From: Centroscyllium fabricii
Taxonomy: Eukaryota
Direction: 5' to 3'
Assembly: GCA_051313645.2 (NCBI GenBank)
Contig: JBNRSN020000003.1
Span: 110,794,001 to 110,858,000 of the forward strand
DNA length: 64,000 nt
Under the pieces are notes generated by a model. That model saw only the letters and a program-made list of their open reading frames with translations. It searched no databases and was not told the DNA's origin. Position 1 is the first letter of the stretch. Each line of letters opens with the position of its first letter. This document shows, one piece after another, positions 10,133 through 53,715 of this stretch. A program made the translations under genes and the position numbers.

Positions 10133-10137
10133 ACACA

Positions 10138-12744: not shown

Positions 12745-15700
12745 TCTGATGAACTTTTTGGTGTGGTTCACACTGTACGGTTATTGTATTTATTCTGTTT
12801 AATGTGTTTGCATATATCTTGTTATATATCTGTTAATGCCTTTATCTTTCTGAAAGGACCTGTACCGGCTGACCCCGCCTCTGGGTGCTAGTATAAAGGA
12901 GAACGCTCCGCCAAACTTATCTCTCATTCCAGACAGACTCATCGGGGACACGGTTCAGTTCCTTGTTAATAAAAGCCTCTTTATTAAGAAACTCGCTACC
13001 GTCATAATTTGAGGTGTCTCAATTTTATTAACAAGAATTTTAAAATGAGACAACAGCAGCAGAACGAAAATCAGCAGCCAGCAGCATCGGAGAGTTGGAA
13101 GACAATTCTAAAACCGAAAACTCTCGACCTCAAACCCCAGGCACCGAACGCGTCGAATGATTTTGAATACTGAATAAGCTGTTTCGAGTCGTACCTCGTC
13201 GTGGCCGGAGTCAGCGATGCGCACACAAGAGAAGAGTCCTGGTCTCCTGCATGAGTGGCAGGGTGTATTCCCTAATTAAGAACGCCATGGAATACAATGT
13301 GATGGAGCTACTGAAGGCTCGATATCTCCAGCCAGTCAACGCGGTCTATGCTCGCCATCTACTCACCACGCGGCGGCAACAGCATGGTGAGTCGAATGAG
13401 GAGTACCTGGAGGCTCTTCAAGCTCTTATTCTGCACTGCGGATGCGCCCCTGTTAACACCTAGGAGCACATGGACCTCATCGTCCGCGATGCCTACGTGG
13501 CAGGCATCAGAACGGCCCCAGCCCGCACCCGCCTGCTCGAGCAGGATAACTTATCCCTTAATGAGGCGGTGAAACTTTCCAACGCGGTGGATGGGACCCT
13601 CCAGAGCCTAGATTCGTACTCGGGGCACGGCTCCCACGCGGTTTCTCCTGGGCCTTGGGACTCACGTTCGACGCCCTAGACGGCGACTGTTGCGGCCACG
13701 ACACCATCTAGACAGCCAGCGCCTCCAAAATGCTTCTTTTGCAGCCAGAAACGGCATCCATGAAGGTCCTGCCCAGCGAAGGAGTCTTCATGCTCCAGAT
13801 GTGGCAAGAAGGGCCATTTTGCAAAGGTCTGCCGATCGGCCCCGGAATCAGCCTGGAAAATGGCAGCGGCCTGCGATGTCCACGCCACAGAGTGGCCTCA
13901 GGTACCTAGCGCACCCAGACAGCGACCCTCGCAGAAATTGCGGCCCTCACAGAACTCGCCGAAATCGCGGCGCTTGCAACAATCGCTACAGCGGCCCTCT
14001 GAACGATCGCCACCTACCCTACCTCAAATGCGGCCTGCCATCGTCGTTTCCCGTGCTCCGCCACCTTTGGGGGTGCGGGCATCTTCATCGCGATTTGGCG
14101 TGAATCGCGGACGCCATCTTGGATCCTGGCAGCAGCGGCCCCGTCCCAGCCCAGGGCGCCACCATCTTTGATCCAGTCAACTCGGATCCTGGCAGCAGCG
14201 TCCCAGCCCAGGGCGCCGCCATCTTTGATCCAGTCATGTCTACCGATGCTGGCAGCAGCAACAGGCAGCTCAGGAGCAGCTCCACTGATCCTGGCAGCAG
14301 CAACAGGCAATTCCGAGGCAATACAGCATTCTGGCACTTGTTCGCCATGAGCCCTTCAGTCCTCCCAACGGCTTTCCCAGTGACCCACCCAGCGGTCCTC
14401 CCAATGGGCCAAAACGCCACCGCGGCCCGCCGCGTGCGAATCACAGGCGCCGCCATCGTTCGCAGACCTGATAACGCCAGACCCTGCATTGCACAAGGGC
14501 CCAGCGCGCACACCACACTTGCCTCTACGGCCCTCAACCAGTCTCTACCTCATCCTCTCATGTCATCGATGATGCCCATCCGGGTAGAGGGGCACCTCAC
14601 CCGATGTCTGTTCGACACTGGGAGTACGGAGAGCTTCAAACACCCTGATACGGTGTGCCGTTATTCCCTCAGGGTTAGGCCCACACATTGTAAAATCTCC
14701 CTCGCCTCAGAGTCCCAGACTGTGGACGTCATCGGCTGCTGTACAGTCACCATTACCGTGAAGGGGTCGACATGCCGCGACTTTCAACTGTACGTCCTCC
14801 CACAGCTCTACGCCCGTGTTGCTTTGCCTGGACTTCCAGTGCAACCTGCAGAGCGTGACGATGGCATACGGCGGTCCCCTGCCTCCTATCACGGTCAGCA
14901 GCCGCGACTGCCCTGCCTCACAACCACACTCCTCTTGCGGTCTGTCTACCTTGAAGATAGACCCCCCCTTGCTGTTCGCCAACCTTGACCCTGACTGCAA
15001 GCCCATTGCAACCAAGAGTCGACAATACAGCACGGGGGACCGGACCTTTATCAAGGCAGAGGTTGCTCGGTTGTTGCGGGAGGGCATCATTGAGGCCAGT
15101 AACAGCCTGTGGCGGGCCCAGGTGGTGGTGCTTAAGTCTGGTAACAAAAAGCGCATGGTCATTGACTATAGCCAGACTATTAACCGCAAACACTGGGCTT
15201 GACGCTTATCCGCTTCCTAGAATCAATGACACGGTCAATCAGATTGCCCAGTATAAGTTCTTCTCCACCATTGACCTTAAGTCGGCCTATCACCAGCCCC
15301 CCATCAGAGCTGAGGACTGTAAATACACTGCCTTCGAGGCAAATGGGCGCTTTTTTCACTTCCTCCGGGTCCCCTTTGGGGTTACCAACGGAGTTTCGGT
15401 TTTCCAACGCGAGATGGACCGAATGGTTGACCAGTATGATTTGCAGGCCACATTCCCGTATTTGGACAATGTCACGATCTGCGGCCATGACCAGCAAGAT
15501 CATGATGCCAATTTGGACAGTTTTCTCCGTACGGCCCAGCGTCTGAACCTCACTTACAATGAGTTGGCTATCCTCAGCTATGTGGTTGAGAATGGGGCCC
15601 TCGGCCCAGATCCTGAACGTATGCGCCCCCTTCAGGAGCTGCCCCTACCGCACTCCCCCAAAGCTTTGAGGAGATGCCTGGGGTTTTTCTCTTACTATGC

Positions 15701-16761
15701 ACAATGGGTTCCCCATTATGCTGATAAGGCCCGGCCTCTCCTCAGGGCTACCTCCTTCCCACTCCTGTTAGAGGCCCAATTTGCTTTTTCTCACATCAAG
15801 CAAGACATCACCAAGGCTACCATGCATGCCATTGATGAGTCTCTCCCCTTCCAGTTTGAAAGTGACGCCTCCGACTTCGCCCTGGCCGCCAGCCTTAACT
15901 AGGCAGGCAGGCCCGTCGCTTTCTTCTCCCGTACCCTGCAGGGCCCTGAAGTCCACCACTCTTCAGTGGAAAAGGAGGCCCAAGCAATCGTGGAAGTAGT
16001 GCGCCACTGGCGCCACTATTTGGCCGGTAAACGATTTACTCTTCTTACTGACCAGCGGTCAGTAGCGTTTATGTTCCACCATAAACAGAGGGGTAAAATC
16101 AAGAATGACAAGATCCTCAGGTGGTGGATCGAACTCTCCGCTTTTGAGAGGGAAGCTTAACGATCCCCAGACGCCCTGTCCCGAGGAACGCGTGCCAGCG
16201 CCCAGTCGGGTAGTCTGAAAACCCTCCACGCTAACCTCTGCCACCCGGGGATCACCAGGCTCGCTCATTTCGTTAAATCACGCAATCTCCCTTATTCCAT
16301 TGCGGAGATCAAGGCGATGACGCAGGAGTGCCCTGTCTGTGCTGAGTGCAAGCCCCAGTTTTACAGGCCTGACAGGGCGCACCTCATCAAGGCCACCCGC
16401 CCATTCGAGCGCCTGAGTGTGGACTTTAAAGGTCCCCTCCTCTCTACCAACCGTAACTCGTACATTCTCACTGTGGTCGACGAGTTCTCCCGTTTCCCTT
16501 TTGCATTCCCATGCCCAGATATGATGAGTGCAACAGTGATAAAGCATCTGATCATGCTATTCGCCATTTTCGGCCTTCCTGGCTTCATACACAGCGACCG
16601 GGGGTCCTCATGACCCCGCCTCTGGGTGCTAGTATAAAGGAGAACGCTCCGCCCACTTATCTCTCATTCCAGGCAGACTCATCGGGGACACGGTTCAGTT
16701 CCTTGTTAATAAAAGCCTCTTTATTAAGAAACTCGCTACCGTCATAATTTGAGGTATCTCA
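12745..16761 (+). mobile_element. Ty3/Gypsy LTR retrotransposon A (PBS-less, YLDN lineage), internally deleted
   Basis: 5' LTR 12745-13021, partial 3' LTR 16611-16761, TSD caacc; domain order gag, PR (FDTGS), RT, RNase H, IN. Confidence 0.93.
13045..16610 (+). pseudogene. gag-pol of Gypsy A, with stops and frameshifts; integrase truncated after HSDRGSS
   Basis: Fragments include zinc knuckles, LFDTGS, DAYPLPRI, YLDNV, SDAS, CPVCAEC, VDFKGP. Confidence 0.9.
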
Positions 16762-17112
16762 CAACCCACTTGCCAGAGGAAACAGTTTCTTCTTACTTGC
16801 TCTATCAAACCATTCATAATTTTGAATACCTTACTAGGTCTCCCCTTAACCTTCAATGCTCTAAGGAATCACAGCTTCTCCAAACTCTCCACATAACTGA
16901 AGTCCCTCATCACTGGTATCATCCTGGTAAGCCTCCTCTGCACCCGCTCCAAGGCTCGACATTCTTCCGAAGTCCGGTGCCCAGGATTGTACACAATACT
17001 CCAGCTGAGGCCTAACCAGTGATTTGTAAAGGTTTAGCATCACATTCTTGTTTTTGTACTCAATGCCCCTATTTTCAAAGCCAAATATACCACACACTTT
17101 GTTAACCGCCTT

Positions 17113-17301
17113 ATAAGAATATAAGAACACAAGAATTAGGAGCAGGAGTAGGCCATGCAGCCCTTCAAGCCTGTTCCACCATTCAATAAGATTATGGCTG
17201 ATCTTCAGCCACAACTCAACGTTCCCGCCCAATTCCCCTGGAGTCCAAAAATCTATCTATCTCAGCCTTGAATATAATCAATGACTCAGCATCCACGGCC
17301 C
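17113..17301 (-). mobile_element. CR1 3' UTR fragment
   Basis: ataagaa tail followed by aggagcaggagtaggcc...atggctgatc. Confidence 0.8.
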
Positions 17302-17329
17302 TTTAAGGTAGTGATACAGGGCTACAGGA

Positions 17330-17420
17330 AATTGTAGAGTGAGGTCATAGAGAGATTTAAAGATGAGGACAAGGATTTGAAATATAATGTATTGGGGGAT
17401 GTAGGTTAGTGAAGATAGAG
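17330..17420 (-). mobile_element. Decayed L2 LINE fragment
   Basis: Peptide IPQYIIFQILVLIFKSLYDL resembles the L2 ORF2 C-terminus (LPV..RI.FKIL.L.FKSLHGL). Confidence 0.5.
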
Positions 17421-17649
17421 ATGGTATTATTCTGCATAAAGGCTGTGTAGTTTTCACTCCTGATATTAACAATTTTTAATGAAAACAAAGAAATTATTAC
17501 GAGAAAGACAAAGAAACATCTCTTCTTCTCAAGCCTGCAACTATCAAAACTTTCTAAATTGTACGGAGACAGGCTTCTGGCTTAAGATGGGATGGAAGGA
17601 AGCAAGGAAGGAAAGGGGGAAAGAAACAAAAAGAAAAAAATTAATGGAT

Positions 17650-17895
17650 TTTTGGATGTCCCAAAGCACTTTACATCTGATGAAGTACTTTTTGCAGTGT
17701 TGCCACTATTGTAATGTAGGAAACGCAGCAGCTAATTTGTGCAGAGCAGTATCCCACAAGCAGCAATATGATAATGACTAGGTAATCTGTTTCAGTGATA
17801 TTGGTTGAGGGATAAACATTGGCCAGAACACTGGGGAGAACTTCCCTACTCTTCTTCAAAAGAGTGCCATGAGATCTTTTACATCCCCAAGAGCT
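17650..17895 (-). mobile_element. Deu-domain SINE fragment (SacSINE1/AmnSINE-like)
   Basis: ttggccagaacactggggagaacttccctactcttcttcaaaagagtgccatgagatctttta resembles the Deu core as recalled; L2-type tail gtaaagtgctttgggacatcc on the minus strand. Confidence 0.7.
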
Positions 17896-18719
17896 GCCCT
17901 GTTGGCCAATTTACGTGTGTAAATTTAAATCCAAGGTTCCTTTTCCAGAGCCGTTGCATTCCATAAATTATATTATCCCCCCCCTTGTTAAACATCTTAT
18001 AGGCTTCGGCCTCAAAAAGTGTTGTTTATTTCTGGTTAAAACTTTCAAGCCTGAAGGAGTCCAAAGATTGTCCTCACCCCAGAAACATATTTTTAATTTA
18101 ACACCAATATATTTCTGACTTATCTGTTGAAACAATGAGAAAACTCTCCTCATATACAACCCAAACTCAGCTGATCCCCAATTTAACCCAATTATGGAAT
18201 ATTGTTAGCCTGTGATCTATATCAAAATAAGGATTGATCCACATAAGGGAAGTGTCATAGTATGTGATAATCCCATCTTAAATCAATAATTATATGCATG
18301 TAGATATTTACAAGAGTCGTGTAATACTTCAATTGAAGACTTCAAACGTGTGGTCCGAGTGCAGTTTCATAAACCACACTTCTCTCCAGCTCACGTCTAC
18401 CCACATCATTTGCTGTACGGCAAATCCAGTGTGCCATGTATTGAAGTTGAAATATCCACTCAATCATGCAGTTTTGGATGCAGCAGGTCCAATCCATCAT
18501 TTGTGTATTTTGGTTCAATTTAATTTGAGCGGCTTCACCTCCCAAAAGTAGTACAGGAACATCTTCTTCAACCAATGTACCTGCACCGAGAGGAACATCC
18601 TCCCTTTAATTTAAAACTTTGCATAAACAGTAGCATTCTTCACTCCACCTTTCAGAACATCCTTGCAAGGCAATCCGTCTGGTTAATGGAAGTTCATCCT
18701 TCCAGTTAGAAATAATTTC

Positions 18720-18892
18720 AAAGCCTTGGAGAGGGTGCAGAAGAGATTTACCAGAATTATACCAGGGATGAGGGGCTTCAGTGTGTGGAGAGACTAGAGA
18801 AGCTGAGATTGTTCCAGAGCAGAGCAGAGAAGGTTAATGTAAGATTAAATAGAGGTGTTCAAAATTATGAAAGTGTTTTCATAGAGTAAATA
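18720..18892 (+). mobile_element. CR1 ORF2 fragment
   Basis: Encodes ALERVQKRFTRIIPGM-like sequence. Confidence 0.75.
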
Positions 18893-23333: not shown

Positions 23334-23609
23334 TGTGATGAACCTTTTGGTATGGTTCACACTGTACTGTTATTGTATATAGTTCTGTTTAATGTGTTTG
23401 TATATATCTTGTTATATATCTGTTAATGCCTTTATCTTTCTGTGGGGACCTGTCCCGGCTGACCCCGCCTCAGGGTGCTAGTATAAGGGAGTACGCTCCG
23501 CCCACTTGTCTTTCATACCAGGTGGACTCATCGGGGATATGGTTCAGTTCTTTGTTAATAAAAGCCTCCTTATTAAGAAACTCGCTTCAGTCGTAATTGA
23601 GGTATCTCA
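23334..23609 (+). mobile_element. Solo LTR, same family as Gypsy A
   Basis: TG...CA ends, TSD gagta, aligns end to end with 12745-13021. Confidence 0.95.
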
Positions 23610-31493: not shown

Positions 31494-31520
31494 AATGAGG
31501 TGTCTTGGTTCTTAAGCTAT

Positions 31521-34500
31521 TCATGTTGCAAAGTCCTGGAGGAATGAAGGAGGATTGCGGACCCTTTCAGGGTATCGTCTGGAACCCGATGGAGGTGGGA
31601 TATCCCCTGTGGGTGGAGGAGTTCCAGGAACCACATCCCCATTGTAGTCATTCGGAATGGAAGGCTCATCAGCAGCATCTGGTGGCTGCTGTGTAAGTGC
31701 GAGGTGTCTGCGGTTCCTGCGAACAATCTGGCCCTGGATATCAACCAGATACGATCTTGGGGTGTTGGCCTGTTCTTGCACAATGCCTCTTTTGTGGGAG
31801 TCACGTATCCACACATAGTCACCTGGAAGGAGTGGACACAAGGGCTTAGCTCTGTGGCGACTGTTAAAGTTGACCTGTTGTCTTAATTTAGATTGTTTGT
31901 CCTTGTCTGTAAAATTCTGGAAGTTGCGCCAGCCTGGGGCAGGAGTGATGGCATAGTTAGCACAGTTGTACGAAGCTTTCTGCCTTGTAGCAACTCAGCA
32001 GGGCTGAATCCACTAGAAAGAGGTGTGGAGCAGTATGCAAGGAGTGCCCGGTATGGGTCAGGTGACTTTTTAAAAGCTGTTTGGCAGTCTGGACAGCGCA
32101 CTCGGCATCCCCATTGCTTTGAGGATACAGAGGACTGGATGTGACATGAGTGAAGTCCCAGCTGTCGGCAAATGAGCGAAAGGTGACCGAGGCAAACTGG
32201 GGGCCATTATCTGTTCGGACCCGCAGTGGGACCCCTAGGCAGGCAAAGCAGGATTTCATACATTCAACGACTGCATGTGAGGTGGTGGAGAGGAGCTTGA
32301 AAACTTCAATGAACTTAGAGAAGTAGTCAAACATTACCAGGTAAGTTGTTATCCAAATGAAATGGATCAACCCCAACCTTCTGCCATGGGCCCTCAGGGG
32401 TGTCATCTGGAATCAATGGCTCTGGTGGTTGTTGTCTCATTTCGGCACAGCTTGGGCATTGTTGTACTTTACGTTGTAGTTGACCGCTTAACCCAGGCCA
32501 CCAGACAGAACACCTGGCTCATGCTCTGCATTTTGTGATCCCTTGATGGCCATCATGCAGTTTGTTCAGAATGTCTTTCTGCATTGATGCTGGAATGACC
32601 AACCGGCACCCTTGTAGCAGCAATCCTTGTGCAATAGTGAGGGAACCTGAAATAGCTGCGTAAGGTCTAAGAGTGTTGTCAAGTTTCGCATGATCTGGCC
32701 AGCACTCACGGCAGTATGTGAAGACCTGACGAAGTAGTTCATCCATTTCCTGTTCTTGACGAAGTGCAGCCAGGCATTTCTCGGTAATGGGCAGTGCAGT
32801 GAGTATTGAGTGTACATAATTCTCTATGCACTGCACCTCAGAGAAATCATTCACCGGCGGCTGGTAGGGAGCTCTGGAGAGGACATCGACAGTTGCTAGG
32901 CTCTTCCCTGGCACATGTGATGTAGTGAAGTGAAAGTGCATGAGTCGCATCCGAAAGCGCTGAATGCGGGGGGACAACTTGTCCAGGTTTTTAGATCCCA
33001 ATAGTGTAAGGAGGGGCTTGTGATCTGTTTTGACCTGGAATGTCATGCCTATTCGGAAGTCTCTATAGCGCTCACACGCCGATGTGATGGCCAGGGCCTC
33101 CTTTTCAATCTGCGCATAGTGCTGCTCTGTTTTTGAAAGGGCTCGTGAAGCATAGGCTACAGGGTGCCAGTCAGTGTCAGGTCTCTTTTGCAAAAGGACT
33201 GCACCCAAGCCAAATGATGAGGCATCAGCTGACACTTTAGTGAGTGTATTGGGGTCATACAGTGCAAGGCCTGGCGGGGTGGTTCGCTCCGTCTTTATCT
33301 CAGTGAAAGCTTGGGACTGCTGGGGTCCCCAATACCATGAGGTCTGCCTATTGAGGAGATCCCGGAGTGGCTTGGTTTTATCGGCTAGATGGGCTACGTA
33401 TTTGCCCAAGTGATTGACCAGGCCCATGAAGTGTCATATTTCAGATACATTCCTTGGCGTGGCCATGTGTGTGAGGGCCTTGACTTGGTCAGGATCTGCT
33501 CTGACACCGGTCCCGCTGATGATCTGGCTGATATATTTCACCTGTGTTTTGGCAAATTCACATTTGGAGTCGAGTGTAAGTCCAGCTTTCTGTAGTCTAC
33601 CGAGAATTGCAAACAGCTGCCGATCGTGCTGTTCCTGGGTTGCGCCAAACACCAACACATCATCCATTTGGTATAAGACACCATCAAGTCCCTGAAAGAG
33701 GCGGGACATGCGGCGCTGGAAATGCTCCGGGGCGGAGGATATTCCAAAGGGCAGTCTGTGGAAACAGTAACGTCCGAATGGCGGGATGAACGTGGTAAGA
33801 TGTTTAGACTCCTCTGTCAAGGGTATTTGCCAGAAACCAGATTGAGCATCAAGCGTTGTAAAAACCTTTGCATCTTTCAGCTGCCCCAGAGTGTGCTCTA
33901 TGCAGGGTAAGAGATGCTGCTCTCTACAGACACTTTCAATGAGTTTTGTTCAGTCTACGCAGATTCTGATTTTTCCGTTAGGTTTTGGGACTACAACCAT
34001 TCCGGAGCACCAGGCTGTGGGTTCCTCAACTCTTGCAATTATCCCCAGTTGCTCCATGTGGGTTAGTTCCTCCTTAACGTTGGACATAAGGGGGAGCGAG
34101 ACACGTCGGGTGTAGAGCGAGCAAATGGTTTGGCCTCTGGCTTGAGGCGAATGTGATACTCCACTTGCAGTCGCCCAATGCCTTGAAACAGTCTGGGGAA
34201 CGGTTATCTGACCTCCCGTTCGAGGTCCATAGATACTGTCTCAGCTACTTGTGGGTCCACCCTGGACACCAGATGCAGAGAAATGATGGCGGGGCGACCG
34301 CGTACCACATACACAACCTGCTTTGTAGACCGTGGACCATGGGTCATGCTAGCTGAAAGTTTTCCTCTGACATTCAACGGGATGTGACCAGGCCCCTGAA
34401 GAACCTTAGAGGTGCTCTGAAGAGCCTCTTGACCCAAGTTGTTGTAGAGGCACTCTGCGATGACAGCAACATCAGCCCCTGTATCGATTTTGAATTCAGT

Positions 34501-35452
34501 CATGTGACCACACAGGCTTCGGGTGATGGTCTACGGCTGGTCCTGCCCATCTCCAATTGACCCCAGGAAGGCTATCTCATCATTGTCGTCCTCTGATATT
34601 TCAGCAACCGCAGGTGTGGATCGGCAAACTGCAGCAAAATGTCCTTTTTTTCTGGCAATTCCTGCAGCTAACATCTTTGGCTGGACAGATTTGTCTATTG
34701 TGTACACTCCGGCCACACCATCTGCAACTCCGCAGATGTGCTTGGAAATGTGTTCCAGGTTGAGTTCCAGTGCGAGGCCTCTGTACATATTCACGTGAGT
34801 CAGTTTGTCTTGATTTGGTAGAAAAATGTTTTTGGGGGCTTGATTGTCGGGGGGGGGGGGCACTTATGGTTTCAATGGACTCCTCTTCCTCATTACTATC
34901 TTTCTGAAGCATTGATTGCTGTTTCTTTATTATTTCATTTTGGAAAACCTGGGTTTTTGCTTTGTCAACTGTGAGGTCTGGATCCATCTGTAATTTTCCA
35001 GAGAGTTTAAGATCCCTTAGTCCAACAACCAATCTGTCACAAATTAGTTTGTCCCACATAGCTCCATATTCACAGTGTTCTATGAGCTCATATAGTGCTT
35101 TAATGAAGCTATCACCCGATTCCGCTCTCTCCTGCACGCGCCTATGGAATCTTGCGCGTTCAAATATCCAATTCCTCCGCGGGATGAAATGATTAGACAA
35201 CACCGTTTTAACTGTGTCATAGCTTTTCAGTTGATCAGCTGCAATATTCCTGCACCGGACGATCGCTTCAGCCTCCGCTCCCAAAGAACATAATAGCGTG
35301 TTGACCTGTTTTTCCTCTGACTGTTTATCAAGGCCTGAAGCCTGTCTGAAGCGTTCAAATCTGTTGAGCCACAACGGCCACACTTCCGGCCATGTAAAAT
35401 CAAATTCAGAGGGGAGAGAAATCTGAAAGAATGCAGGGCTTTGAGTGGCCAT
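31521..35452 (-). pseudogene. gag-pol of Gypsy E
   Basis: Gag (WLNRFERF), PR (IDTGAD), RT (QMDD), RNase H (ADAS), IN (TDNGPQF); several frameshifts. Confidence 0.92.
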
Positions 35453-36212
35453 GATAGTAAGCAACGTGGGCCAATTACATTTTTGTCTTCTCTCTCAGTC
35501 TCTCTTGTTTATCTCCGTCTTGGCTTAACTAGTTATCGTAAACTTTCACTCACCGGGAGCTGACTGGTTTCACTGGGAAAGTTAGTTCCATTGAGGCGGA
35601 CAGTCATTCACATGGGTATTTTGGGTCCTTGCCACTTCTGTCACCATGTAATGTGATCAACACACGGACACAGACACAGGATGTATTGTTTCTGCCATTA
35701 ACTCTCTCAAGGCTGCTTCTTTATTTTACCTTCACTTTTTGTTTACCCTCCGTTGCCCCCTACTGGGCGGAGGGTAACTATCACCACAATGGTTGGGGCC
35801 ACAAGTATGCTAATACATCTGCCCACCCCTTCCATGTTAGAAAGGTTGGGCTCCATGGTCTGCACAAAGCCCTATGCAAGGTTGGAGCTGGACTCCTCGA
35901 TGCTCCTCGACATGCATTCAGGCTTCCTCGCAGGCGTGCCAATGCACCAAGCATTTTGCTGTGCATACCCATCAGCTTTGTTCTGTAGGCCACCCCATCG
36001 AAGTCCTCATCTGAGTCCTATGCAGCAGAACCCGTGTGCAACCTCGCCGTCCGGGGAGCTGGCACCTGCACTGGCCTTTCCCCCCTGCCCCGGCTGTAGC
36101 CCACTTGACCCCGGTGAGACACCATGTGCAGATCCCGCCCCTAAGCTACCCTCAAGTCTGTACAGTGCCAGTATCTGAACTGGTGGCTGCAAGTGTCAGA
36201 TTAAGCGACTAT

Positions 36213-36935: not shown

Positions 36936-36975
36936 CGTGTCTCTTCTTCATCACCACTTTCCTCTTCCACCAGTA

Positions 36976-40045: not shown

Positions 40046-40778
40046 ATGGCTCAACCACCACCCGTGTCGGGGCCCAGTGCTACATTCAGCATCCAGCCAC
40101 CGGAGCCGTTTGACTTCACCAAACCCCAAGAATGGGAAAAGTGGATACGGAGGTTTGAGCGCTTTTGTCAGGCCAGTAACCTCCATACAACCACACAGGC
40201 GAACCAAGTGAACACTCTTATGTACTGAATGGGAGACGAAGCGGATGACGTTCTGAAAGGACTGAATCTATCCGACGCTCAACAACGACAGTATGACGCA
40301 GTTAAGAGATGGATTTCTGGCATTCTTTGTGTTGAAGAAGAACGTTTTAATATGAGGAAGCAAGGAACAGGTGAAACAATCGATTCTTTTGTGACCGCAT
40401 TGTATACCTTGGCTGAACATTGTAACTATGGAGCTTTGCACGATGAACTGATTAGGGACAGGTTGGCTGTTGGGCTAGCAGACGTGCGCCTGTCAGAGAG
40501 AATGCAGCTGGATAAAGACCTCACGCTAGAAAAAGCGATGGCAATGGCCAGACAGACAGAAGCAGTGAGACAGCAACAGTGCAACCTGCGGGGAGAAAAT
40601 ACTAAGGAGACATGCTCTGTGGATAGAGTCGTGAGTAAAGGCAAACAATTTCAGAGAAATAAGAAGTTTAACAAGCCAAACAAAACGTACACAGAGAAAA
40701 ATAAGACAGTCAAAATCATGCTTCAAATGTGGAAACAGTCCCTCACATCCAAAAACGGAGTGCCCTGCTAATGATGTA
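40046..40778 (+). pseudogene. gag of Gypsy D (in-frame TGA at 40226-40228 and later frameshift)
   Basis: PEPFDF..WEKWIRRFERF, LAEHCNYG, IRDRL motifs. Confidence 0.88.
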
Positions 40779-43700
40779 ATGTGTCATGCATGTGGCAAGA
40801 AAGGCCACTATAAGCGTGTGTGTGCATCCTCCAAAGTTGTGCACGAGGTACAAGAAGAAGAGGAGGACAGCAGCTTATTCCTGGGCACAGTGGCAGCAGG
40901 CAGAGATCCTTGGATGGTGAACCTGAAGATCAAAGACAGAAAGGTCAAATTTAAAATAGACACTGGCGCTGATGTGACTGTTATCCCTGACTTTGTGTTT
41001 AATACTGTATTCAAAGGTGACATTCCAAAACTTCAGCAAGCAAAGAGGCTGATACTGGGACCAGGATGCACTCCACTGGATGTCCTGGGAGTCTCAAACA
41101 TCACGCTAGAGAGAGGAGGACAGCAGATACAAGAGGACGTGTATGTGATAAGAAACCTGCACACAGCGTTACTAGGCAGACCCGCCATCACCAAGCTGGA
41201 GCTGGTGGCACGACTCAACACCGTCGACCTGGACACACTGAAAAACAGTTATCCAAAGCTGTGCAGCGGTCTTGGCCTTATACAGCAGCCATACACTATC
41301 AAGCTGAAACCTGGGGCGGAGCCATTCTCCCTGAAGACACCGCGACGGGTACCTCTTCCACTGATGCCAAAGGTGAAAAAAGAACTTGAGCGCATGGAAA
41401 GGATAGGAGTTATCAGCCGGGTAGAGGAGCCCACTGAATGGTGCACAGGCATGGTAGTAGTGGCAAAAAAGTCAGGAGAGCCTCGCATATGTGTCGATCT
41501 CACAATGCTAAACAAGTCAGTGTATAGGGAGAAGTATATACTGCCTTCGGTAGAGCAGACTCTAGGCTCACTAGCTGATGCTCAGATCTTTAGCAAGCTA
41601 GACGCTAACATGGGCTTCTGGCAAATACCGCTAGCCAAAGAATCAGCTAAACTGACGACCTTTATTACACCATTCGGGAGGTATTACTTTAATAGGTTAC
41701 CCTTTGGGATTGCATCGGCACCCGAGCACTTCCAGAATAGAATGGTCACAGAGATCACTGAGGGCTTAGAGGGCATTGTTTGCCATATGGATGATGTATT
41801 AATATGGGGGCACACGCAGACAGAACATGACTCTCGTCTTCATGCAGTGTTGAGGAAGATAGAGAAGGCAGGAATAACTCTCAACATGGAGAAATGTGAG
41901 TTCTCAGTAAGGGAAGTTAAATTCCTGGGTCACATAATTACAGATGAGGGAGTAAAGTCAGACCCGACTAAAACAGCAGCAGTAAGAGAGATGCAGGAGC
42001 ACACCAATGTAAGTGAGCTACGCTGCTTCCTGGGGATGGTGAATCAGTTAGGAAAGTTTATCCCTCAGCTAGCAGAAAAGGATAAACCACTCAGAGACTT
42101 GCTGTCTAAGAAAAATCACTGGCTCTGGGGAGTCGACCAGGTCAAAGCCTTCAACAGCCTGAAGGAGGAGCTGTCGAGCACACCTGTGCAAGCTCTGTAT
42201 GATCCCAACAAAGAGAGTAAGGTGTCAGCAGACGCGTCCAGTTTCGGACTGGGAGCGGTCCTGCTACAGAAATGGGGCGAGGAATGGAGGCCTGTCGCCT
42301 ACGCTTCCAGATCTCTCTCACCAGTCGCGCAGAGATATGCACAGATAGAAAAAGAGGCGCTGGCACTGACATGGGCCTGTGAAAGATTCAGAGACTTTCT
42401 GATAGGCCAACACTTTGAGTTAGAGACGGATCATAAACCTCTGCTAAGTCTCCTGGGGGCCCAAACTTTGGACGCCTTACCCCCCAGGATCCAGCGTTTC
42501 AGAATGAGACTGATGAGGTATTCTTACATAATATCTCATGTTCCTGGAAAAAGCTTGTGGACCGCAGACACGCTGTCACGAGCACCAATGGAGAACAATG
42601 CAGTAGACACAGACACAGAGCTCATGGAGAGCACAAACATCTATGTGGACAGCATCATGGAGAACCTCCCAGCGACCGTTTCCTACCTGGACAACCTGAG
42701 AGAGCACCTCAAAACGGACAACGTGTGCTCTACCGTCATGCGGATGTGTCGGGATGAATGGCCTGAGTACAACGCATGTGAGGGAACTTTAAAACGGTAC
42801 TGGACGGAGCGCGCCTTCCAAACCGTACAGGACGGTCTTCTACTGAAGGGCACAAGGCTGGTCATTCCTTCACCCCTAAGGAATGATGTCCTCGATAAGC
42901 TACATGAAGGACATCAGGGCGTCGTGAAATGTAGGGAGCGGGCGCGACAGACTGTGTGGTGGCCTGGCCTGAGCCAGCAGCTAAACGAGCTAGTGCTAAG
43001 CTGTAGAACCTGCATCAGGGAACGTACAAACCACGCAGAGCCGCTCATCCAGACAGAACTTCCTGACAGACCCTGGCAGAAGTTAGGGGCGGATTTGTTT
43101 GCACTTAAAGGTAAAACCTACCTGCTGGTGGTGGACTATTACTCGAGGTATGTTGAGATAGCGAACCTCACCTTCACTAAGTCCACTGATGTTACAGTTT
43201 ATCTCAAATCAATGTTCGCGCGTCATGGAATACCTGAGACACTAGTGACTGATAACGGGCCGCAATTCTCATGTGGCACATTCTCAGCCTTCGCTGCGAC
43301 ATATGGATTCCAGCATGTGACCAGCAGCCCGAGATATCCGAAAAGCAATGGAGAAGCAGAACGTGCTGTTCAGACGGTAAAGAATCTCAAGAAAGCCACT
43401 GATCCGTATCTTGCCTTGCTTGCATACAGATCAACGCCACTCCAGAACGGATTTAGTCCTGCTCAGGTGCTCGTGGGGCACCAGCTTCGCACTACTGTGC
43501 CAACCTCTCCATCGCTATTGGACCCAGCACTGCCGAGCAGCACCACAGTTAAGTCGAAGGAGAAGGAGAGGAGGAGCACGGATCTGACACGCTACAACAA
43601 GCGTCACCGAGCGTCTGATCTCAGCAGTCTCCCATCCGGGCAACAGGTGTGGGTGACTGACTCCAAAGTCACTGGGACTGTGGTGAATGAACACTCAGCA

Positions 43701-43928
43701 CCGCGATCCTACATAGAAGATGTGCCTCAGGGGACTGTACGTAGAAACAGGCACCAACTTATTCCTATGGACGGACCGGAGAGTGTCATGGACACAACCA
43801 ACTTACAGGTGCCTGCCCAGACACATACTCCTGTGTCATCCCCGAGACCACAAACACCTAGTCTGGAGCACACTTTCAGAACGAGATCTGGAAGACCTGC
43901 AGTAAAACCCACTAGACTGGACTTTTGA
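40779..43928 (+). CDS. pol: Open 1049-aa frame of Gypsy D: zinc knuckle, protease, RT, RNase H, integrase
   Basis: CHACGKKGH..VC, IDTGAD, HMDD, ADAS...EKEA, HHCC and TDNGPQF...GEAER all in one frame; natural start would be upstream in gag. Confidence 0.95.
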   Translation: MCHACGKKGHYKRVCASSKVVHEVQEEEEDSSLFLGTVAAGRDPWMVNLKIKDRKVKFKIDTGADVTVIPDFVFNTVFKGDIPKLQQAKRLILGPGCTPLDVLGVSNITLERGGQQIQEDVYVIRNLHTALLGRPAITKLELVARLNTVDLDTLKNSYPKLCSGLGLIQQPYTIKLKPGAEPFSLKTPRRVPLPLMPKVKKELERMERIGVISRVEEPTEWCTGMVVVAKKSGEPRICVDLTMLNKSVYREKYILPSVEQTLGSLADAQIFSKLDANMGFWQIPLAKESAKLTTFITPFGRYYFNRLPFGIASAPEHFQNRMVTEITEGLEGIVCHMDDVLIWGHTQTEHDSRLHAVLRKIEKAGITLNMEKCEFSVREVKFLGHIITDEGVKSDPTKTAAVREMQEHTNVSELRCFLGMVNQLGKFIPQLAEKDKPLRDLLSKKNHWLWGVDQVKAFNSLKEELSSTPVQALYDPNKESKVSADASSFGLGAVLLQKWGEEWRPVAYASRSLSPVAQRYAQIEKEALALTWACERFRDFLIGQHFELETDHKPLLSLLGAQTLDALPPRIQRFRMRLMRYSYIISHVPGKSLWTADTLSRAPMENNAVDTDTELMESTNIYVDSIMENLPATVSYLDNLREHLKTDNVCSTVMRMCRDEWPEYNACEGTLKRYWTERAFQTVQDGLLLKGTRLVIPSPLRNDVLDKLHEGHQGVVKCRERARQTVWWPGLSQQLNELVLSCRTCIRERTNHAEPLIQTELPDRPWQKLGADLFALKGKTYLLVVDYYSRYVEIANLTFTKSTDVTVYLKSMFARHGIPETLVTDNGPQFSCGTFSAFAATYGFQHVTSSPRYPKSNGEAERAVQTVKNLKKATDPYLALLAYRSTPLQNGFSPAQVLVGHQLRTTVPTSPSLLDPALPSSTTVKSKEKERRSTDLTRYNKRHRASDLSSLPSGQQVWVTDSKVTGTVVNEHSAPRSYIEDVPQGTVRRNRHQLIPMDGPESVMDTTNLQVPAQTHTPVSSPRPQTPSLEHTFRTRSGRPAVKPTRLDF

Positions 43929-45211: not shown

Positions 45212-46842
45212 AATCATAAAATCATAGAAGATAGGAGCAGGAGTAGGCCATTCGGCCCTTCGAGCCTGCTCTGCCATTCAATGAGATCATGGCTGATCTT
45301 ACACGTTCAGTACCCAGTCCCTGCCTTCTCCCCATATCCCTTAATCCCTTTAGCCTGCAGAAATATATCCAGTTCCCTCTTGAATATATTCAATGAACCG
45401 GCCTCCACCGCCCTCTGTGGCAAGTAATTCCACAGGTTCACCACTCTCTGGGTGAAGAATTTCCTCCTCATCTCAGTCCTACAAGGCTTACCCCTTATCC
45501 TTAGACTATGCCCCCTGGTTCTCGACTCCCCGGCCATCGGAAACATCCTTTCTGCATCTAACCTGTCCAAGCCTGACAGAATTTTAGAAGTCTCGATGAG
45601 ATCCCCTCTTAATCTTCTAAACTCCAGCGAGTATAAGCCCAGACTACACAATCTCTCCTCATAAGTCATTCCTGCCATCCCAGGTATCAGCCTGGTGAAT
45701 CGTCGCTGTACTCCCTCCATGGCAAGAACATCCTTCCTCAGATGCGGCGACCAAAACTGCACACAATACTCAAGGTGTGGCCTCACCAAGACCCTGTACA
45801 GCTGCAGCAAGACATCCCTATTCCTATACTCAAACCCTCTTGATCTGAAGGCCAACATACCATTTGCCTTTTTAACCACCTGCTGCACCTGCATGCTCAC
45901 CTTCAGTGACTGGTGCACAAGAACACCCAGATCTCTTTGCACTTCCCCATCTCCCAATCTATTGCCGTTCAAATAATACTCTGCCTTTCTGTTTTTGCTA
46001 CCAAAGTGGATAACCTCACATTTATCCACATTATAGTGCATTTGCCAGGTGTTCGCCCAATCCCCCAATCTGTCCAGGTCGCTCTGGAGCTTCCCGACAT
46101 CCTCCTCAGAGCATACTCCCCCTCCAAGCTTAGTGTCATCTGCGAATTTGGAGATGTTACATCCAATTCCCTCATCCAGGTCATTAATATATATTGTGAA
46201 CAGCTGGGGTCCCAGTACCGACCCCTGTGGGACCCCACTAATCACTGCCCGCCAATCAGAAAACGACCCGTTTATCCCAACTCTCTGTTTTCTATCTGCC
46301 AACCAGTTCTCTAACCACGCCAATACCTTGCCCCCAATCCCATGAGCCTTAATTTTGCCTGCCAATCTCCTATGAGGGACCTTGTCAAAGGCTTTCTGGA
46401 AGTCCAGATAAACCACATCTACTGGCTCTCCCCTATCTATTTTATCGGTTACATCCTCGAAGAATTCCAATAGATTAGTCAAGCACGATTTACCTTTTGT
46501 AAATCCATGCTGACGTTGTCCGATCACATCACTCTTAGTCAAGTGATCTGCTATTACGTCCTTAATAATGGACTCTAGCATTTTGCCCACAACCGATGTA
46601 AGGCTTACCGGTCTATAATTCCCCACCTTCTCTCTACCCCCCTTTTTGAATAGTGGGGTAACATTAGCTACCCTCCAATCCCTGGGCACCATTCCAGAGT
46701 CTATGGAGTTCTGGAAAATGATCCTCAAAGCATCTGATATCTCCAGGGCCACTTCCTTAAGCACCCTAGGATGCAGATTATCAGGCCCTGGGGATTTGTC
46801 GGCCTTTAATCCTTTCAATTTCCAGGACACCATATCCTTAGA
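45212..46842 (-). mobile_element. Young CR1-B with an open RT frame of about 510 codons
   Basis: ORF 45307-47007 from ISKDMV onward contains all RT motifs including FADD; 3' tail at 45212. Confidence 0.95.
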
Positions 46843-47251
46843 AATATTGAGAGGCGATCTCATTGAGACGTATAAAATTCTGAAAGGTCTGGACAGGTTA
46901 GATTCAGAGAGAATGTTTCCAATGGCGGGGGAGTCCAGAACCAGGGGCCACAGTCTAAGGATAAGGGGTAAACCATTTAGGACAGACATGAGGAAGAATT
47001 TCTTCACTCAGAGAGTGGTGGGCCTGTGGAATTCCCTGCCACAGAGGGCGGTGGAGGCCAGTTCATTAAACATATTCAAGAGGGAATTGGATATATTTCT
47101 TCAAGCTAAAGGGATTAAAGGTTATGGAGAAAAGGTGGGGACGGGTTACTAGCTTGCTAAAGATCAGCCATGATCTCATTGAATGGCGGAGCAGGCTCGA
47201 AGGGCTGAATGGCCTACTCCTGCTCCTATCTTCTATGATTCTATGATTCTA
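46840..47251 (+). mobile_element. CR1 3' end joined 5'-to-5' with the preceding copy
   Basis: LRGDLIETYKIL...GTGY stop, (attctatg)n tail. Confidence 0.9.
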
Positions 47252-47533: not shown

Positions 47534-48421
47534 TAAACTCCAACGATTACAAGCCCAGACTACACAATCTCTCCTCGTAGGTCATTCCTGCCATTCCAGG
47601 AATCAGCCTGGTGAAACGCCGCTGCACTCCTTCCATGGCAAGAACATCCTTCCTCAGGCGAGGCGACCAGAACTGTACACAATACTCGAGGTGTGGTCTC
47701 ACCAGTGCCTTGTACAGCTGCAGTAAGGTATCCTTATTCCTATACTCGAACCCTCTTGATATGAAGGCCAACATACCATTTGCCTTCCCAACCGCCTGCT
47801 GCACCTGCGTGCTCGCCTTCAGCGACTGGTGCACAAGAACACCCAGGTCTCTCTGCACCTCCCCATCTCCCAATCTATTGCCATTTAAGTAGTAATCTGC
47901 CCTCCTGTTTTTGCCCCCAAAGTGGATAACCTCACATTTATCCACATTATAGTGCATCTGCCATCTATCTGCCCAGTCCCCCAACTTATCCAAATCGCCC
48001 TGTAACTTCCTGACACCCTCTTCAGAGCCTGCCCCCCCCTCCTAGTTTGGTGTCGTCTGCGAATTTGGAGATATTACATTCAATTCCCTGATCCAGATCA
48101 TTAATATATATTGTAAACAGCTGAGGTCCCAGGACAGACCCCTGCGGTACTCCACTAGTCACCGGCTGCCACTCAGAAAACGAGCCGTTAATTCCAACTC
48201 TCTGTTTTCTGTCTGCCAACCAGTTCTCTATCCACATCAAAACTTTGCCCCCAATCCCATGAGCCTTAATTTTACATGCTAATCTTTTATGTGGAACCTT
48301 ATCGAAAGCTTTCTGGAAGTCAAGGTACACCACATCTACTGGCTCTCCCCCATCTATTTTCCGAGTTACTTCCTCAAAGAATTCCAATAGATTAGTTAAA
48401 CATGATTTACCTTTTGCAAAC
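47534..48421 (-). mobile_element. CR1-B internal RT fragment
   Basis: ORFs 47547-47993 and 48022-48453. Confidence 0.9.
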
Positions 48422-48830
48422 CTGAGGATTGGGAGCAGTTTAGGATTCAACAAAGGAGGACAAAGCGATTAATTAAGAGGGTGGAATAGAGTAGGAGAGT
48501 AAGCTTTCAAGGAACATAAAACATGACTGTAAAAGCTTCTATAGATATGTGAAGAGAAAAAGATTGGTGAAGTCAAGCGTAGATCCCTTGCAGTCAGAAT
48601 AAGGGGAATTTATAATTCCCCTTATAGAATAAATGGCAGACCAATTAAATAGATACTTTGGTTCTGTCTTCATAAAGGAGGACACAAATAACCTCCCAGT
48701 GATGTCGGGGAACAGAGGGTCTAATGAGGGGGAGGAACTGAATGAAATCAGTATTTGTAGGGAAATGGTGTTAGGGAAATTGACAGGATTGAAGCCGATA
48801 AATCCCCAGGGCCTGATAAGTACCCTAGGA

Positions 48831-49438
48831 CAGCGGTCTCCAACCGCCGGTCCGCGGAACAGTTTTACCGGTCCGCGGACGGTCCTGAGAATCCGCGCAT
48901 GCGCCGAATCAACGACCTTGCCGCGGACCGTCGGCTAATGATCGGCGCATGCGCCGCCTCACAGACCCAGCCGCTGGCAACTGAAGGAATTGCAGCGGCA
49001 GGGTCTGTGAATCTACGCATGCGCCGCCTCACAGACCGAGCCGCTGCCCACTGGCAACTGAAGGAATTGCAGCGGCAGGGTCTGTGAATCTACGCATGCG
49101 CCGCCTCAGAGACCCAGCCGCTGCCCGCTGGCAACTGAAGGAATTGCAGCGGCAGGGTCTGTGAATCGTCGCTAGATGTTTCACAAACGCAAGGCAGCTG
49201 CCCAGCAGGTCAGTCTTTTTACCCCGCCAGCCTAGAAAATCTCCGTCAGAACCCCCCCCCCGCTGAGGCTAAAAAGCTCCTTCCGCCCCCCCCCTCCACG
49301 AGGCTAAAAATCTCCGTCAGCCCCCTCCCCCCCACCCCGCTGAGGCTAAAAATCTCCGATCAGAACCCCCCCACCGGTCCGCGAAGAAATTGACAACCTC
49401 AAAACGGGCCGCGAACGCAAAAAGGTTGGGGTCCACTG
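48831..49438. mobile_element. Non-autonomous hAT (Charlie-like) element
   Basis: TIRs cagcggtctccaacc / ggttggggtccactg; perfect 8-bp TSD ccctagga with central TA. Confidence 0.92.
48946..49167. repeat. Three tandem 70-77 bp self-complementary units inside the hAT MITE
   Basis: cgcatgcgccgcctcacagacccagccgctg...cagcggcagggtctgtgaatc repeated three times. Confidence 0.9.
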
Positions 49439-49897
49439 CCCTAGGATGTAGATTAAGGAAGTGGCCCGAGATAGTAGATGCATTGCTGGTCATCTTCCAA
49501 AATTCTATAGGCTCTGGAACAGTACCCATGGATTGGAGGGTAGCTAAAGTTACCCCACTGTTCAAAAAACGTGGTAGAGAGTGTGGTAACCGTTATTCCA
49601 CTGTTATACCACTGTATCACCATGGCTAATGATGGGCTGTGCAGATGTTAGGCACAGCCCCATTTACTGTGACTCTGTTGGGAGCCAGGTCAGCCACACC
49701 CCCGACTCCTCCCCCAGGTGAGGCCCCGATATAGGTGTGGTCTGACCGAGGCTCCATCCATTCCTGTACAGTAGTTCATCTGGAGAGTAGCTCCGTTCTT
49801 TAGTAATTAAAAGCCTTCAGTTTCGGTAACTACTCGTCGACTCTTTTGATTGAAGACCTTGACGATACGTCAATTTTAATTACTAAATTATTTTTAA

Positions 49898-51196
49898 ATG
49901 GATAGCAGCAACGTTAAGCCTGACAAGCTGGACATCAGTCCCCAGGACCCTGCTGCTCCCGCTATCTTCGAACACTGGTTCGGCCTACTGGAAGCCGCCG
50001 AGGTTACAGCAGACAAGGACATGCTACATGTCCTGCGATCTAGGATCTCCAGCAGAGTATTCACCCTCGTCAGGAACGCCACAACCTACGAAAGGACTGT
50101 ACAAATTTTAAAGAAATGCTACGTGCGCCCGGTCCATTCGGTCTACGCCCGACATGTGCTGGCGACCAGACCTCAACTACCGGGTGAGTCAAATGAGGAG
50201 TTTGAGCAAGCGCTCCTGGCCCTGGTACGGGCCTGTGGCTGCAAAGGCACAACTATTGCAGAGGAGGAAGAACGCCTCGTTCGGGACGCTTATGTCACAG
50301 GACTGAGGTGTGTGGAAGCCCGCCAGCGGCTACTAGAGAGAGACAATTTATCCCTCGAGGAGGCAACCACGTTAGCCAAATCGGTAGAGGGGGCCCGCAG
50401 AAAGTTACAGGCGTACAGCGGCACTAACCCGCAAGCCTACAACATATGGGCCGCGCCACAACAGGCCCAGGCCTGGGCGCCACGGGCCGAGACCCCCACG
50501 ATGGCCGCGACGGCCACTGAAGACGTTAAAAGAAAGCGCTGTTACTTCTGCGGCCAAGGACTGCATCCTAGAGCGAAATGCCCAGCCAGGACAGCGACCT
50601 GCGAGAAATGTGCAAAGAAGGGACACTACGCTAAGGTCTGCAAATCAGCTCCAGCAGCGTCTCCAGCAGCGTCTCCAGCAGCGTTTAACAAAAGGTACAA
50701 CAGTGCAGCCTGTGAGAGCACCGACAGTGACCAGGTAAGCTGCATTAGCAGCGCGATCCAGCGACGGTACGGGGGTAAACAACAAGCGCCCCCATCCCCC
50801 ACCCTGATGCAGCAAAGGCCGGCCAAGCGCGACCCTCCAACGCGGCCGGCTGCGTGCGAATCACGGGCACCGCCAACCCGACCACCGCGGTTCACTGCGT
50901 GCGAATCACGGGCACCATTCCCTTCACACAGACACCATTCCCTTCACACGGACACCATTGCCTTCACACGGACACCATTCCCTTCACTCGGACACCATTC
51001 CCTTCACTCGGACACCATTCCCTTCACACGGACACCATTCCCTTCACACGGACACCATTCCCTTCACACGGACACCATTCCCTTCACACGGACACCATTC
51101 CCTTCACACGGACACCATTCCCTTCACACGGACACCATTCCCTTCACACGGACACCTTGCAAGAACTGCCCCTACCTCACAACCCCAAAGCCTTGA
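49898..51196 (+). CDS. gag: gag of Gypsy B (open), reading into the minisatellite
   Basis: RDAYVTGL, CYFCG...H....C and CEKCAKKGHYAKVC; C-terminal part is repeat-derived. Confidence 0.85.
   Translation: MDSSNVKPDKLDISPQDPAAPAIFEHWFGLLEAAEVTADKDMLHVLRSRISSRVFTLVRNATTYERTVQILKKCYVRPVHSVYARHVLATRPQLPGESNEEFEQALLALVRACGCKGTTIAEEEERLVRDAYVTGLRCVEARQRLLERDNLSLEEATTLAKSVEGARRKLQAYSGTNPQAYNIWAAPQQAQAWAPRAETPTMAATATEDVKRKRCYFCGQGLHPRAKCPARTATCEKCAKKGHYAKVCKSAPAASPAASPAAFNKRYNSAACESTDSDQVSCISSAIQRRYGGKQQAPPSPTLMQQRPAKRDPPTRPAACESRAPPTRPPRFTACESRAPFPSHRHHSLHTDTIAFTRTPFPSLGHHSLHSDTIPFTRTPFPSHGHHSLHTDTIPFTRTPFPSHGHHSLHTDTIPFTRTPCKNCPYLTTPKP
50911..51156. repeat. 20-bp minisatellite (gacaccattcccttcacacg) x12 plus partial unit
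   Basis: Head-to-tail copies, no spacers, few substitutions. Confidence 0.97.
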
Positions 51197-51319
51197 GGAG
51201 ATGTCTAGGATTTTTCTCCTATTATGCACAATGGGTCCCACAGTTCGCAGATAAGGCTAGGCCACTCCTCAAGGCTGCCGTCTTCCCCCTCTCTGTGGAA
51301 GCCCAAAGGGCATTCGCAA

Positions 51320-53715
51320 CCCATTGCCACTAAGAGTCGGCGGTACAGTGAGGGGGATCGCACGTTTATCAGGTCGGAGGTCGGGCGGATGCTGAAGGAG
51401 GGGATAATTAAAGCCAGCACCAGCCCCTGGCGTGCCCAAGTTGTAGTGGTGAAGTCTGGCGAAAAACAGCGGCTGGTTATCGATTACAGCCAGACTATCA
51501 ATCGCTGCACCGGGCTCGACGCCTACCCCCTTCCCCGCATCTCAGAAATGGTCAATCAGATCGCCCAGTACAAGGTGTTCTCCACGATCGACCTTAAATC
51601 GGCGTATCATCAATTCCCGATCTGGAAAGCCGACCGCCCCTACACCGCCTTCGAGGCGAACGGTCGGCTCTACCACTTCCTCCGGGTCCCCTTTGGCGTG
51701 ACCAACGGAGTGTCAGTGTTCCAACGGGAGATGGACCGTATGGTTGACCAAAACGACTTGCAGGCCACCTTCCCTTACCTGGACAACGTGACCATCTGCG
51801 GCCACGACCAGCAGGACCACGATGCCAATCTGGCCAAATTCCTCGACACGGTGGCTAAGCTGGACCTCACGTATAACAAAGACAAATGTGTCTTTAATAC
51901 AGCCCGGCTCGCCATCCTCGGATACGTGGTGGAGAACGGGCTCCTCGGCCCCGACCCACAGCGTATACGACCCTTGCAAGAACTGCCCCTACCTCACAAC
52001 CCCAAAGCCTTGAGGAGATGTCTAGGATTTTTCTCCTATTTTGCACAATGGGTCCCACAGTTCGCAGATAAGGCTAGGCCACTCCTCAAGGCTGCCGTCT
52101 TCCCCCTCTCTGTGGAAGCCCAAAGGGCATTCGCAAGGATAAAGGAAGATATTATCAAGGCGACCATGCTCGCTGTTGATGAATCCATCCCTTTCCAGGT
52201 GGAGTGACGCTTCGGACTTCGCCCTTGCTGCCACCCTGAATCAGGCAGGCAGGCCCGTAGCGTTTTTCTCCCGCACCTTACAGGGACCCGAAACTCGCCA
52301 CTCCGCAGTGGAAAAGGAGGCCCAGGCCATCGTGGAGGCCGTGCGCTACTGGCGTCATTACCTGGCCGGTAAGCGTTTTACCCTGCTCACCGACCAACGG
52401 TCGGTAGCGTTTATGTTTAATAATAAACAACAGGGTAAAATCAAGAATGATAAGATCCTGCGGTGGCGGATCGAACTCTCGACTTACGAGTACGACATTC
52501 TTTACCGACCAGGCAAACTCAACGAACCCCCGGACGCTCTGTCCAGGGGACCGTGCGCCAGTGCCCAGCTAGACCGGCTGAAGGACCTCCACGACCGCCT
52601 TTGCCACCCGGGTGTCACCAGACTCGCCCATTTCGTCAAATCCCGTAGCCTCCCCTACTCCATCACGGAGATCAAGGCTATGACCCGAGAGTGCCCTGTC
52701 TGCGCCGAGTGCAAACCCCACTTTTTCCGTCCAGACACGACGTACCTCATCAAGACCACCCGCCCCTTTGAACGTCTCAGCGTGGACTTCAAAGGCCCCC
52801 TCCCTTCCACCGACCGCAACTCATACTTCCTCACGGTAGTGGATGAGTTCTCCCGCTTCCCCTTCGCCTTCCCCTGCCCAGACATGACGAGCGCAACGGT
52901 GATCAAACACTTCACCGCGCTGTTCGCCATTTTCGGTCTCCCCAGCTACATCCATAGCGACCGGGGGTCATCGTTCATGAGCGATGAACTGCGCCAGTTC
53001 CTGCTCCAGAGAGGGGTTGCCACGAGCAGAACGACCAGTTACAACCCCCGGGGGAACGGCCAGGTAGAAAGGGATCATCTGGAGGGTGGTCACCCTGGCC
53101 CTTAAGTCCAGAGGCCTTCCAGTGTCCCATTGGCAGGCAATCCTCCCAGATGCGCTGCACTCTATTCGCTCACTGTTATGTACCGCGACTAACGCCACCC
53201 CGCACGATCTGATTTTTTCTTTTAACAGGAGGTCGACTTCGGGGACAGCTCTCCCTCCATGGCTGACGACGCCGGGGCCGGTTCTGCTTAAAAGGCATGT
53301 CCGGAGCCACAAGATGGACCCCCTGGTGGACAAGGTACAGCTCCTACACGCGAACCCGCACTACGCCTTCGTGCAGTTCCCTGACGGGCGTGAGGACACC
53401 GTGTCCATCAGGGACCTGGCCCCTGCCGGAATCACCACCACAGCGCCCCCTGCTGGCCAGCAGGTCGACCAACCACCAGATGCAGGATGGCCCCTGAGTT
53501 TCCCTGACTACGAACCGGACGGCGGGGACCAGCCGAGCCCACCGCGACCTGAAGCCACAGCGCCGGCAGATGCGGACCATTTGACACAAGAGGCACCGCC
53601 TCCAACACCGGAGCGCCGGCGGTCCTCCAGGCAGACACGACCGCCGGACAGACTAATTATTAACTGTTCGATCCATTCACCCCCCCCGGACTCAAAGTTT
53701 TTAAGAAGGGGTGAA
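51320..53715 (+). pseudogene. pol of Gypsy B (RT, RNase H, integrase); protease absent; frameshifts near 52200 and 53075
   Basis: ORFs 51224-52207, 52176-53105 and 53086-53763 with YLDN, SDAS, HHCC, HSDRG and NGQVER. Confidence 0.93.

Follow-up and report, generated by a model that had tools for sequence, protein, structure and literature searches.

Asp or Asn at the third carboxylate position of the reverse transcriptase in an animal-wide clade of Gypsy retrotransposons

Two dead LTR retrotransposons of Centroscyllium fabricii carry YLDN at the active site of their reverse transcriptase (RT) and belong to a Gypsy clade in which, judged from alignments, the third RT carboxylate is replaced by Asn or retained as Asp, with no other residue, and in which the Asn enzyme quite probably copies its own element. 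The clade bears on a question raised by the mutants of Ty1 and Ty3, namely why reverse transcriptases retain a third aspartate that is dispensable in vitro and essential in vivo. It provides many natural D/N sister pairs, both states within one genome, and evidence of Asn replication at the scale of a population of copies.

Two dead Gypsy elements with a YLDN active site

The window analyzed here is a stretch of 64,000 nt of C. fabricii (assembly GCA_051313645.2, contig JBNRSN020000003.1, positions 110,794,001-110,858,000 of the forward strand). Elements A (12745..16761) and B (49582..54006) are dead copies of the Ty3/Gypsy group of LTR retrotransposons, and they and all their features described below lie on the plus strand. 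Element A, which is flanked by the target site duplication (TSD) CAACC, begins with a 5′ LTR (12745-13021) that starts with TC, followed by gag, protease, RT, RNase H, and a partial integrase, with stops and frameshifts throughout; a deletion has joined the integrase to the final 151 bp of the 3′ LTR (16611-16761; 97.4% identity to the 5′ LTR). Element B (TSD GAGAG) retains both LTRs (49582-49872 and 53716-54006; 97% identity), gag from position 49898, RT, RNase H, and integrase, as well as a polypurine tract at ∼53703-53715. It has suffered frameshifts and the loss of its protease region, which is replaced by a lesion (50907..51319) consisting of a 20-bp tandem array followed by a copy of 51969-52136 that is 99% identical to it. 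The source of this duplicated segment is the element's own RT thumb.

An earlier note on this DNA had reported YLDN in both elements, encoded by different codons. We read tat ttg gac aat in A (15459..15470) and tac ctg gac aac in B (51776..51787), both in frame within the Pfam domain RVT_1, so that three of the four codons indeed differ synonymously. Both sites align with the YLDD of Ty3 RT (PDB 4ol8), and the catalytic Asp of motif A is intact in A (15273..15275) and in B (51590..51592). A third member of this group is represented on the minus strand by its 3′ end (63003..64000); its RT, ∼1.4 kb outside the window, likewise has YLDN. An LTR copy of A's family (23336..23609, plus strand; 89%) is probably solo. 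The closest named proteins in the homolog search come from catsharks and rays (73-78% identity).

The window consists almost wholly of repeats, including dense fragments of CR1/L2-type LINEs (e.g., 10020-11237 and 45307-47007), and no tRNA genes were found in it. Further Gypsy elements at 40229-43928, 31521-35494, and 56677-58953, which we take to be Mag-like, have ordinary DD sites where these could be read (HMDD, QMDD). The 1,097-aa open frame at 40635-43928 was used as an outgroup.

Assignment to Gypsy is based on direct LTRs with TG...CA ends and a 5-bp TSD in 18 of the 26 YLDN elements for which both LTRs were recognized, on the domain order gag-protease-RT-RNase H-integrase, and on Ty3 as the nearest solved RT structure (E 1e-33). 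YxDD, a usual but not defining trait of Gypsy elements, is replaced by YxDN in 170 of the 319 clade rows. No env was found as a third ORF between integrase and 3′ LTR; among 16 copies in which both LTRs were identified, 15 have a gag-pol frame that stops no more than ∼130 nt from the 3′ LTR. This argues against an env-bearing endogenous retrovirus or errantivirus, and the Gypsy-type RT and the gag of element B, in which two knuckles and not a triple Cys-His array are read, argue against BEL/Pao. A Pfam search of the window elements yielded no chromodomain. The pol region is very compact, with ∼15-25 residues between the last RNase H Asp and the integrase zinc finger in most homologs.

We presume that this group may be what has been named the Cigr-1 clade, the MolGy clade being likewise possible. 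Cigr-1 has a single ORF of ∼1,200 aa, LTRs of ∼245 bp, and a Mag-like gag, and this fits the invertebrate members of the clade described here (mostly 1,135-1,290 aa). The Cigr-1 clade comprises elements of Ciona, molluscs, and annelids (PMC6238403, PMC8556966). The clade motif was not found in the searched part of the supplements of these papers, and PMC2774666 makes no mention of Cigr.

Asn among the copies of the C. fabricii genome

Exact pattern matches in family context were counted across the 7.21-Gb genome, yielding 209,678 for YLDN and 283 for YLDD. Single A-to-G changes in the same codons served as neutral controls and gave 438 matches for YLDS and 788 for YLGN. YLDD thus falls below both controls and is no commoner than neutral damage. 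Its copies, 0.13% of the N and D matches taken together, are scattered: in a DNA tree from which the D/N codon was left out, and in which three D-labelled stretches are missing, 30 in-family YLDD copies are spread among the YLDN subfamilies. Anchoring the pattern on motif B instead gave 195,098 N versus 364 D. At up to 4.7 kb each, ∼200,000 copies would amount to roughly 0.9 Gb, an estimate to be read with the proviso that not all copies are whole. Any annotation filter that requires YxDD would thus discard, as dead, a repeat group that ranks among the largest in this genome.

A sample of young copies was taken from the best 150 matches to the RT of element B, a query that itself holds YLDN, and comprises 20 copies with frames of more than 1,400 aa. 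Fourteen of these keep all 12 motif checks in a single gag-pol frame and carry YLDN; an LTR pair was recovered in 16 of the 20, and in four the two LTRs are identical. In a comparison of the 110 codons that surround the active site, A and B gave a dN of 0.097 and a dS of 1.62 (dN/dS 0.06), and dN/dS ranged from 0.02 to 0.18 among in-frame YLDN pairs with finite dS, one frameshifted copy having been left out. The synonymous codons of A and B would alone be a weak argument for selection, because a change of AAC to AAT in front of G is a CpG transition; what upholds the argument is that A shares its codon string with its subfamily (2 of 40 copies sampled), together with the counts across the genome. 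Since whole-frame and identical-LTR copies carry YLDN and the polymerases of A and B diverged at a dN/dS of 0.06, the sequence data indicate that Asn is the replicating state, selected and passed on over repeated cycles of replication by several subfamilies. RNA evidence was limited to small shares of words in assembled contigs. Both proposals of the earlier note, that Asn is selected and that the lineage transposes with it, are supported by these data. The note had named a predominance of YLDD among young or intact copies as a finding that would refute it, and the scattered 0.13% does not bear this out.

Were YLDN a product of decay, N would have appeared after insertion, by editing or by CpG deamination of GAC GAC. 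This sequence does contain a CpG whose decay gives GAC AAC, which could explain some single N tips in the trees as well as the first origin of N. However, N accounts for 99.87% of the N and D matches, the adjacent CpG in AAC GTG is mostly intact among the matches listed, subfamilies with GAT AAT are present, and copies with identical LTRs carry N. Moreover, a YLDD family of the same genome, which is encoded by GAT GAC and lacks such a CpG, has one N in 98. For this genome, decay can be practically dismissed as the source of YLDN.

The same YLDD family, which came to light through the pattern anchored on motif B and is genuine (97 of 98 matches are D) and of the same clade, could be thought to supply a helper that mobilizes copies with an inactive YLDN enzyme in trans, as could the other Gypsy families with YxDD-type sites in the window. 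Such a helper is very improbable. The YLDD family is small, uniform, and AT-rich; it has only ∼100 copies, the frames of all 14 copies examined are at most 661 aa long, and its RT is distant from that of B (dN ∼0.36, dS saturated) and from the shark-and-ray YLDN branch as a whole. In addition, the polymerase of the YLDN subfamilies is itself under strong purifying selection, both other aspartates included, whereas loss of pol would be the expected fate of non-autonomous passengers. The YLDD family is therefore unlikely as the engine for 200,000 copies; it may represent a separate horizontal arrival.

Switching between Asp and Asn across animals and its candidate background

A first search yielded 120 homologous proteins (97 N and 23 D), and a second one, for which a D member was the query, raised this to 211, of which 112 have N and 99 have D. 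Among 149 aligned cluster representatives, the 116 with at least 42% identity comprise 59 DN, 52 DD, and five with damaged or cut motifs, while all 33 below 42% are DD. All 319 ingroup rows fall into a single clade of the joint tree (support 100, stem 0.71). N occupies the position in 170 of them and D in the remaining 149, whereas all 34 outgroup rows have D. At least 28 state changes are required, compared to a mean of 106 after shuffling, although this number may be inflated by single N or D tips that are mutated dead copies. Close sister pairs differ in state, and D is only slightly favoured over N at the root (28 versus 30 steps). The trees were built with FastTree only, are weak at deep nodes, and contain no named reference elements. 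Read with these limits, they indicate that the third RT carboxylate of the clade is Asp or Asn and has switched repeatedly across animals. The D-to-N lineage of the earlier note is thus real with regard to Asn but is part of an animal-wide clade whose toggling between the two states the note had missed.

The hosts of the two states could suggest that Asn is favoured rather than neutral in some of them, either through altered handling of metal or pyrophosphate or as a slower, less harmful enzyme. Among the 27 listed rows with named hosts, all seven N rows come from marine animals (sharks, rays, coral, anemone, and mussel) and all 20 D rows from insects, spiders, and whipworm; N families outnumber the D family ∼2000 to 1 in this genome; and the Ty1 mutant D211N shows a preference for Mn2+ and a higher affinity for pyrophosphate (PMC2148107). 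On the other hand, host and element phylogeny are confounded and most rows are unnamed, D is retained alongside N in this genome, and the state can vary even between close sisters. We consider a host-dependent advantage of Asn unlikely.

Apart from the D/N position, the catalytic residues are conserved. The motif A Asp is kept in 208 of the 211 homologs and the first motif C Asp in 210. At three further polymerase positions, which we place in the fingers and template grip as the equivalents of HIV-1 P59, R78, and P157, the homologs have Q, S, and V (207, 208, and 208 of 211, respectively) in both the D and the N state, whereas Ty3 and most outgroup rows have P, R or K, and P. The RNase H tetrad is intact and accompanied by TDQ in 103 of 112 N rows and 95 of 99 D rows. 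Of the outgroup pattern matches, 33 in number, 27 have TDH and one has TDQ. No residue switches together with D/N among the best 15 and best 12 columns listed, a comparison of low power with seven supported-branch pairs. The earlier note had implied compensatory changes; a residue of this kind that travels with Asn was not detected in these pairs.

Tolerance of Asn needs a cause, because the corresponding mutants of yeast elements are severely impaired. Ty1 D211N polymerizes with a 223-fold lower kpol and its transposition is blocked (PMC2148107), and Ty3 D214N is active in vitro while all Ty3 triad mutants are lethal in vivo (PMC5371799). Chemistry probably relies on two aspartates, that of motif A and the first of motif C, as it does in Ty1 and Ty3 with Asn as the third residue in vitro. 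More tentatively, we propose a permissive background made up of four clade-fixed candidate changes, three in the polymerase and one in RNase H, although we rate its chance as slightly below even. The loss of rate and processivity that is lethal to the yeast mutants would be absorbed by changes fixed once on the long clade stem, namely Q, S, and V for P, R, and P in the fingers and template grip and TDQ for TDH in RNase H. Asp and Asn would thereby become nearly interchangeable, and no fresh compensation would be required at each switch. We favour this permissive background because Ty1 D211N can be partly rescued from the RNase H domain: suppressors located there restore transposition to 5-10% (PMC2148107). 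Many positions are fixed on the 0.71 stem, and the four candidates are so far markers of the clade. Furthermore, nematode BEL/Pao elements have reached YVDN on an unrelated background, which counts against a need for clade-fixed residues. It is conceivable, again with somewhat less than an even chance, that the RT of this clade has been rebuilt such that the third carboxylate is optional and the Asn form, working at useful speed, built about a tenth of a 7-Gb genome. If true, the clade-fixed residues of fingers, template grip, and RNase H would represent nature's full suppressor of the Ty1 D211N/Ty3 D214N defect.

A self-pairing leader and comparison with known elements

Ty3 is primed by a tRNA, and the leader of the elements described here (∼21 nt) lacks a tRNA-type TGG start. 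Instead, it pairs with the element's own LTR. In element A (12962..13035; fold z −3.85), positions 13023-13035 are the exact complement of 12962-12974 in the poly(A)-signal region of the LTR, and in B (49799..49887; fold z −3.62), 49874-49887 are the exact complement of 49799-49812. Among the 26 YLDN elements for which both LTRs were recognized, 24 show such pairing at 12 or more of 14 bases; 16 of 40 YLDN and 14 of 20 D-labelled stretches yielded no LTR pair. Stem positions 5-14 show several Watson-Crick pair types among 28 distinct stems and are compensatory across subfamilies, a covariation that is partly circular in that the best match was picked for complementarity inside a fixed LTR stretch. 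The LTR arm of the stem nearly always ends just 5′ of a conserved GC(C) that could serve as a cut site. The partner overlaps the poly(A) signal and lies ∼40 nt past the start inferred from a TATA-like box. The leader may prime as in Tf1/Tj1, or it may hide the 5′ poly(A) signal. A metagenome scan for loci with LTRs yielded one 1.2-kb contig.

The YLDD family has the same leader, with 13-14 of 14 bases paired in four copies, while a fifth matches perfectly over 15 bases (14 copies were fetched); two D-labelled rows were kept out of this family, as one came from a mostly-N family and one paired the LTRs of another element. The self-pairing site therefore appears to be a trait of the clade as a whole and not a partner of Asn. 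The earlier note had linked Asn to unusual priming and suggested a check for co-segregation of YxDN with the self-complementary site, which fails in this genome. An adaptation of the active site to self-priming, in which priming by a piece of RNA cleaved from the transcript of the element itself would require or allow a changed site, would fit the match to the own LTR in 24 of 26 elements and the exchanges of pair type in the stem, and self-priming could belong to the clade-wide permissive background. As an explanation of Asn it is nevertheless improbable: the YLDD family shares the site, the third aspartate acts at each nucleotide addition and not at priming alone, and Tf1-type self-primers are not known to depart from YxDD.

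The complementarity to the own LTR is shared with Tf1 and Tj1, where the partner of the primer-binding position is the 5′ end of the mRNA (PMC4600332); here it overlaps the poly(A) signal instead. As to the Tf1/sushi group, Pfam gave no chromodomain match in the window elements.

As to Asn, we found no report of YLDN or YxDN in Gypsy elements in the open literature (subscription journals and Repbase were outside its scope), but only the YVDN of nematodes. This natural motif occurs in the BEL/Pao elements Cer7-Cer12 of C. elegans and in the hookworm element Atlas (PMC554778, PMC9094657), a precedent that the earlier note had overlooked while correctly recognizing a natural D-to-N substitution, which is real in Gypsy here. 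These are intact LTR elements with Asp-to-Asn at the same position, but they belong to another superfamily and some have env. The accessible text of the two papers describes no repeated switching or mass expansion, and that of PMC554778 leaves the activity of the YVDN elements open. The substitution itself thus has a precedent, whereas repeated switching, scale, and natural D/N pairs were not found described.

Ty1 D211N represents the same substitution at the same position and retains polymerase activity, but Ty1 belongs to the Copia superfamily and the mutant has lost transposition, as the earlier note had correctly stated (PMC2148107). The best solved relative is Ty3 RT (PDB 4ol8, 7q5b), which shares the order protease-RT-RNase H-integrase and keeps the RNase H tetrad but has P, R, and P where the clade has Q, S, and V. 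YLDN aligns to Ty3 D213/D214, and while Ty3 D214N is a laboratory mutant, the Asn of the elements described here is natural.
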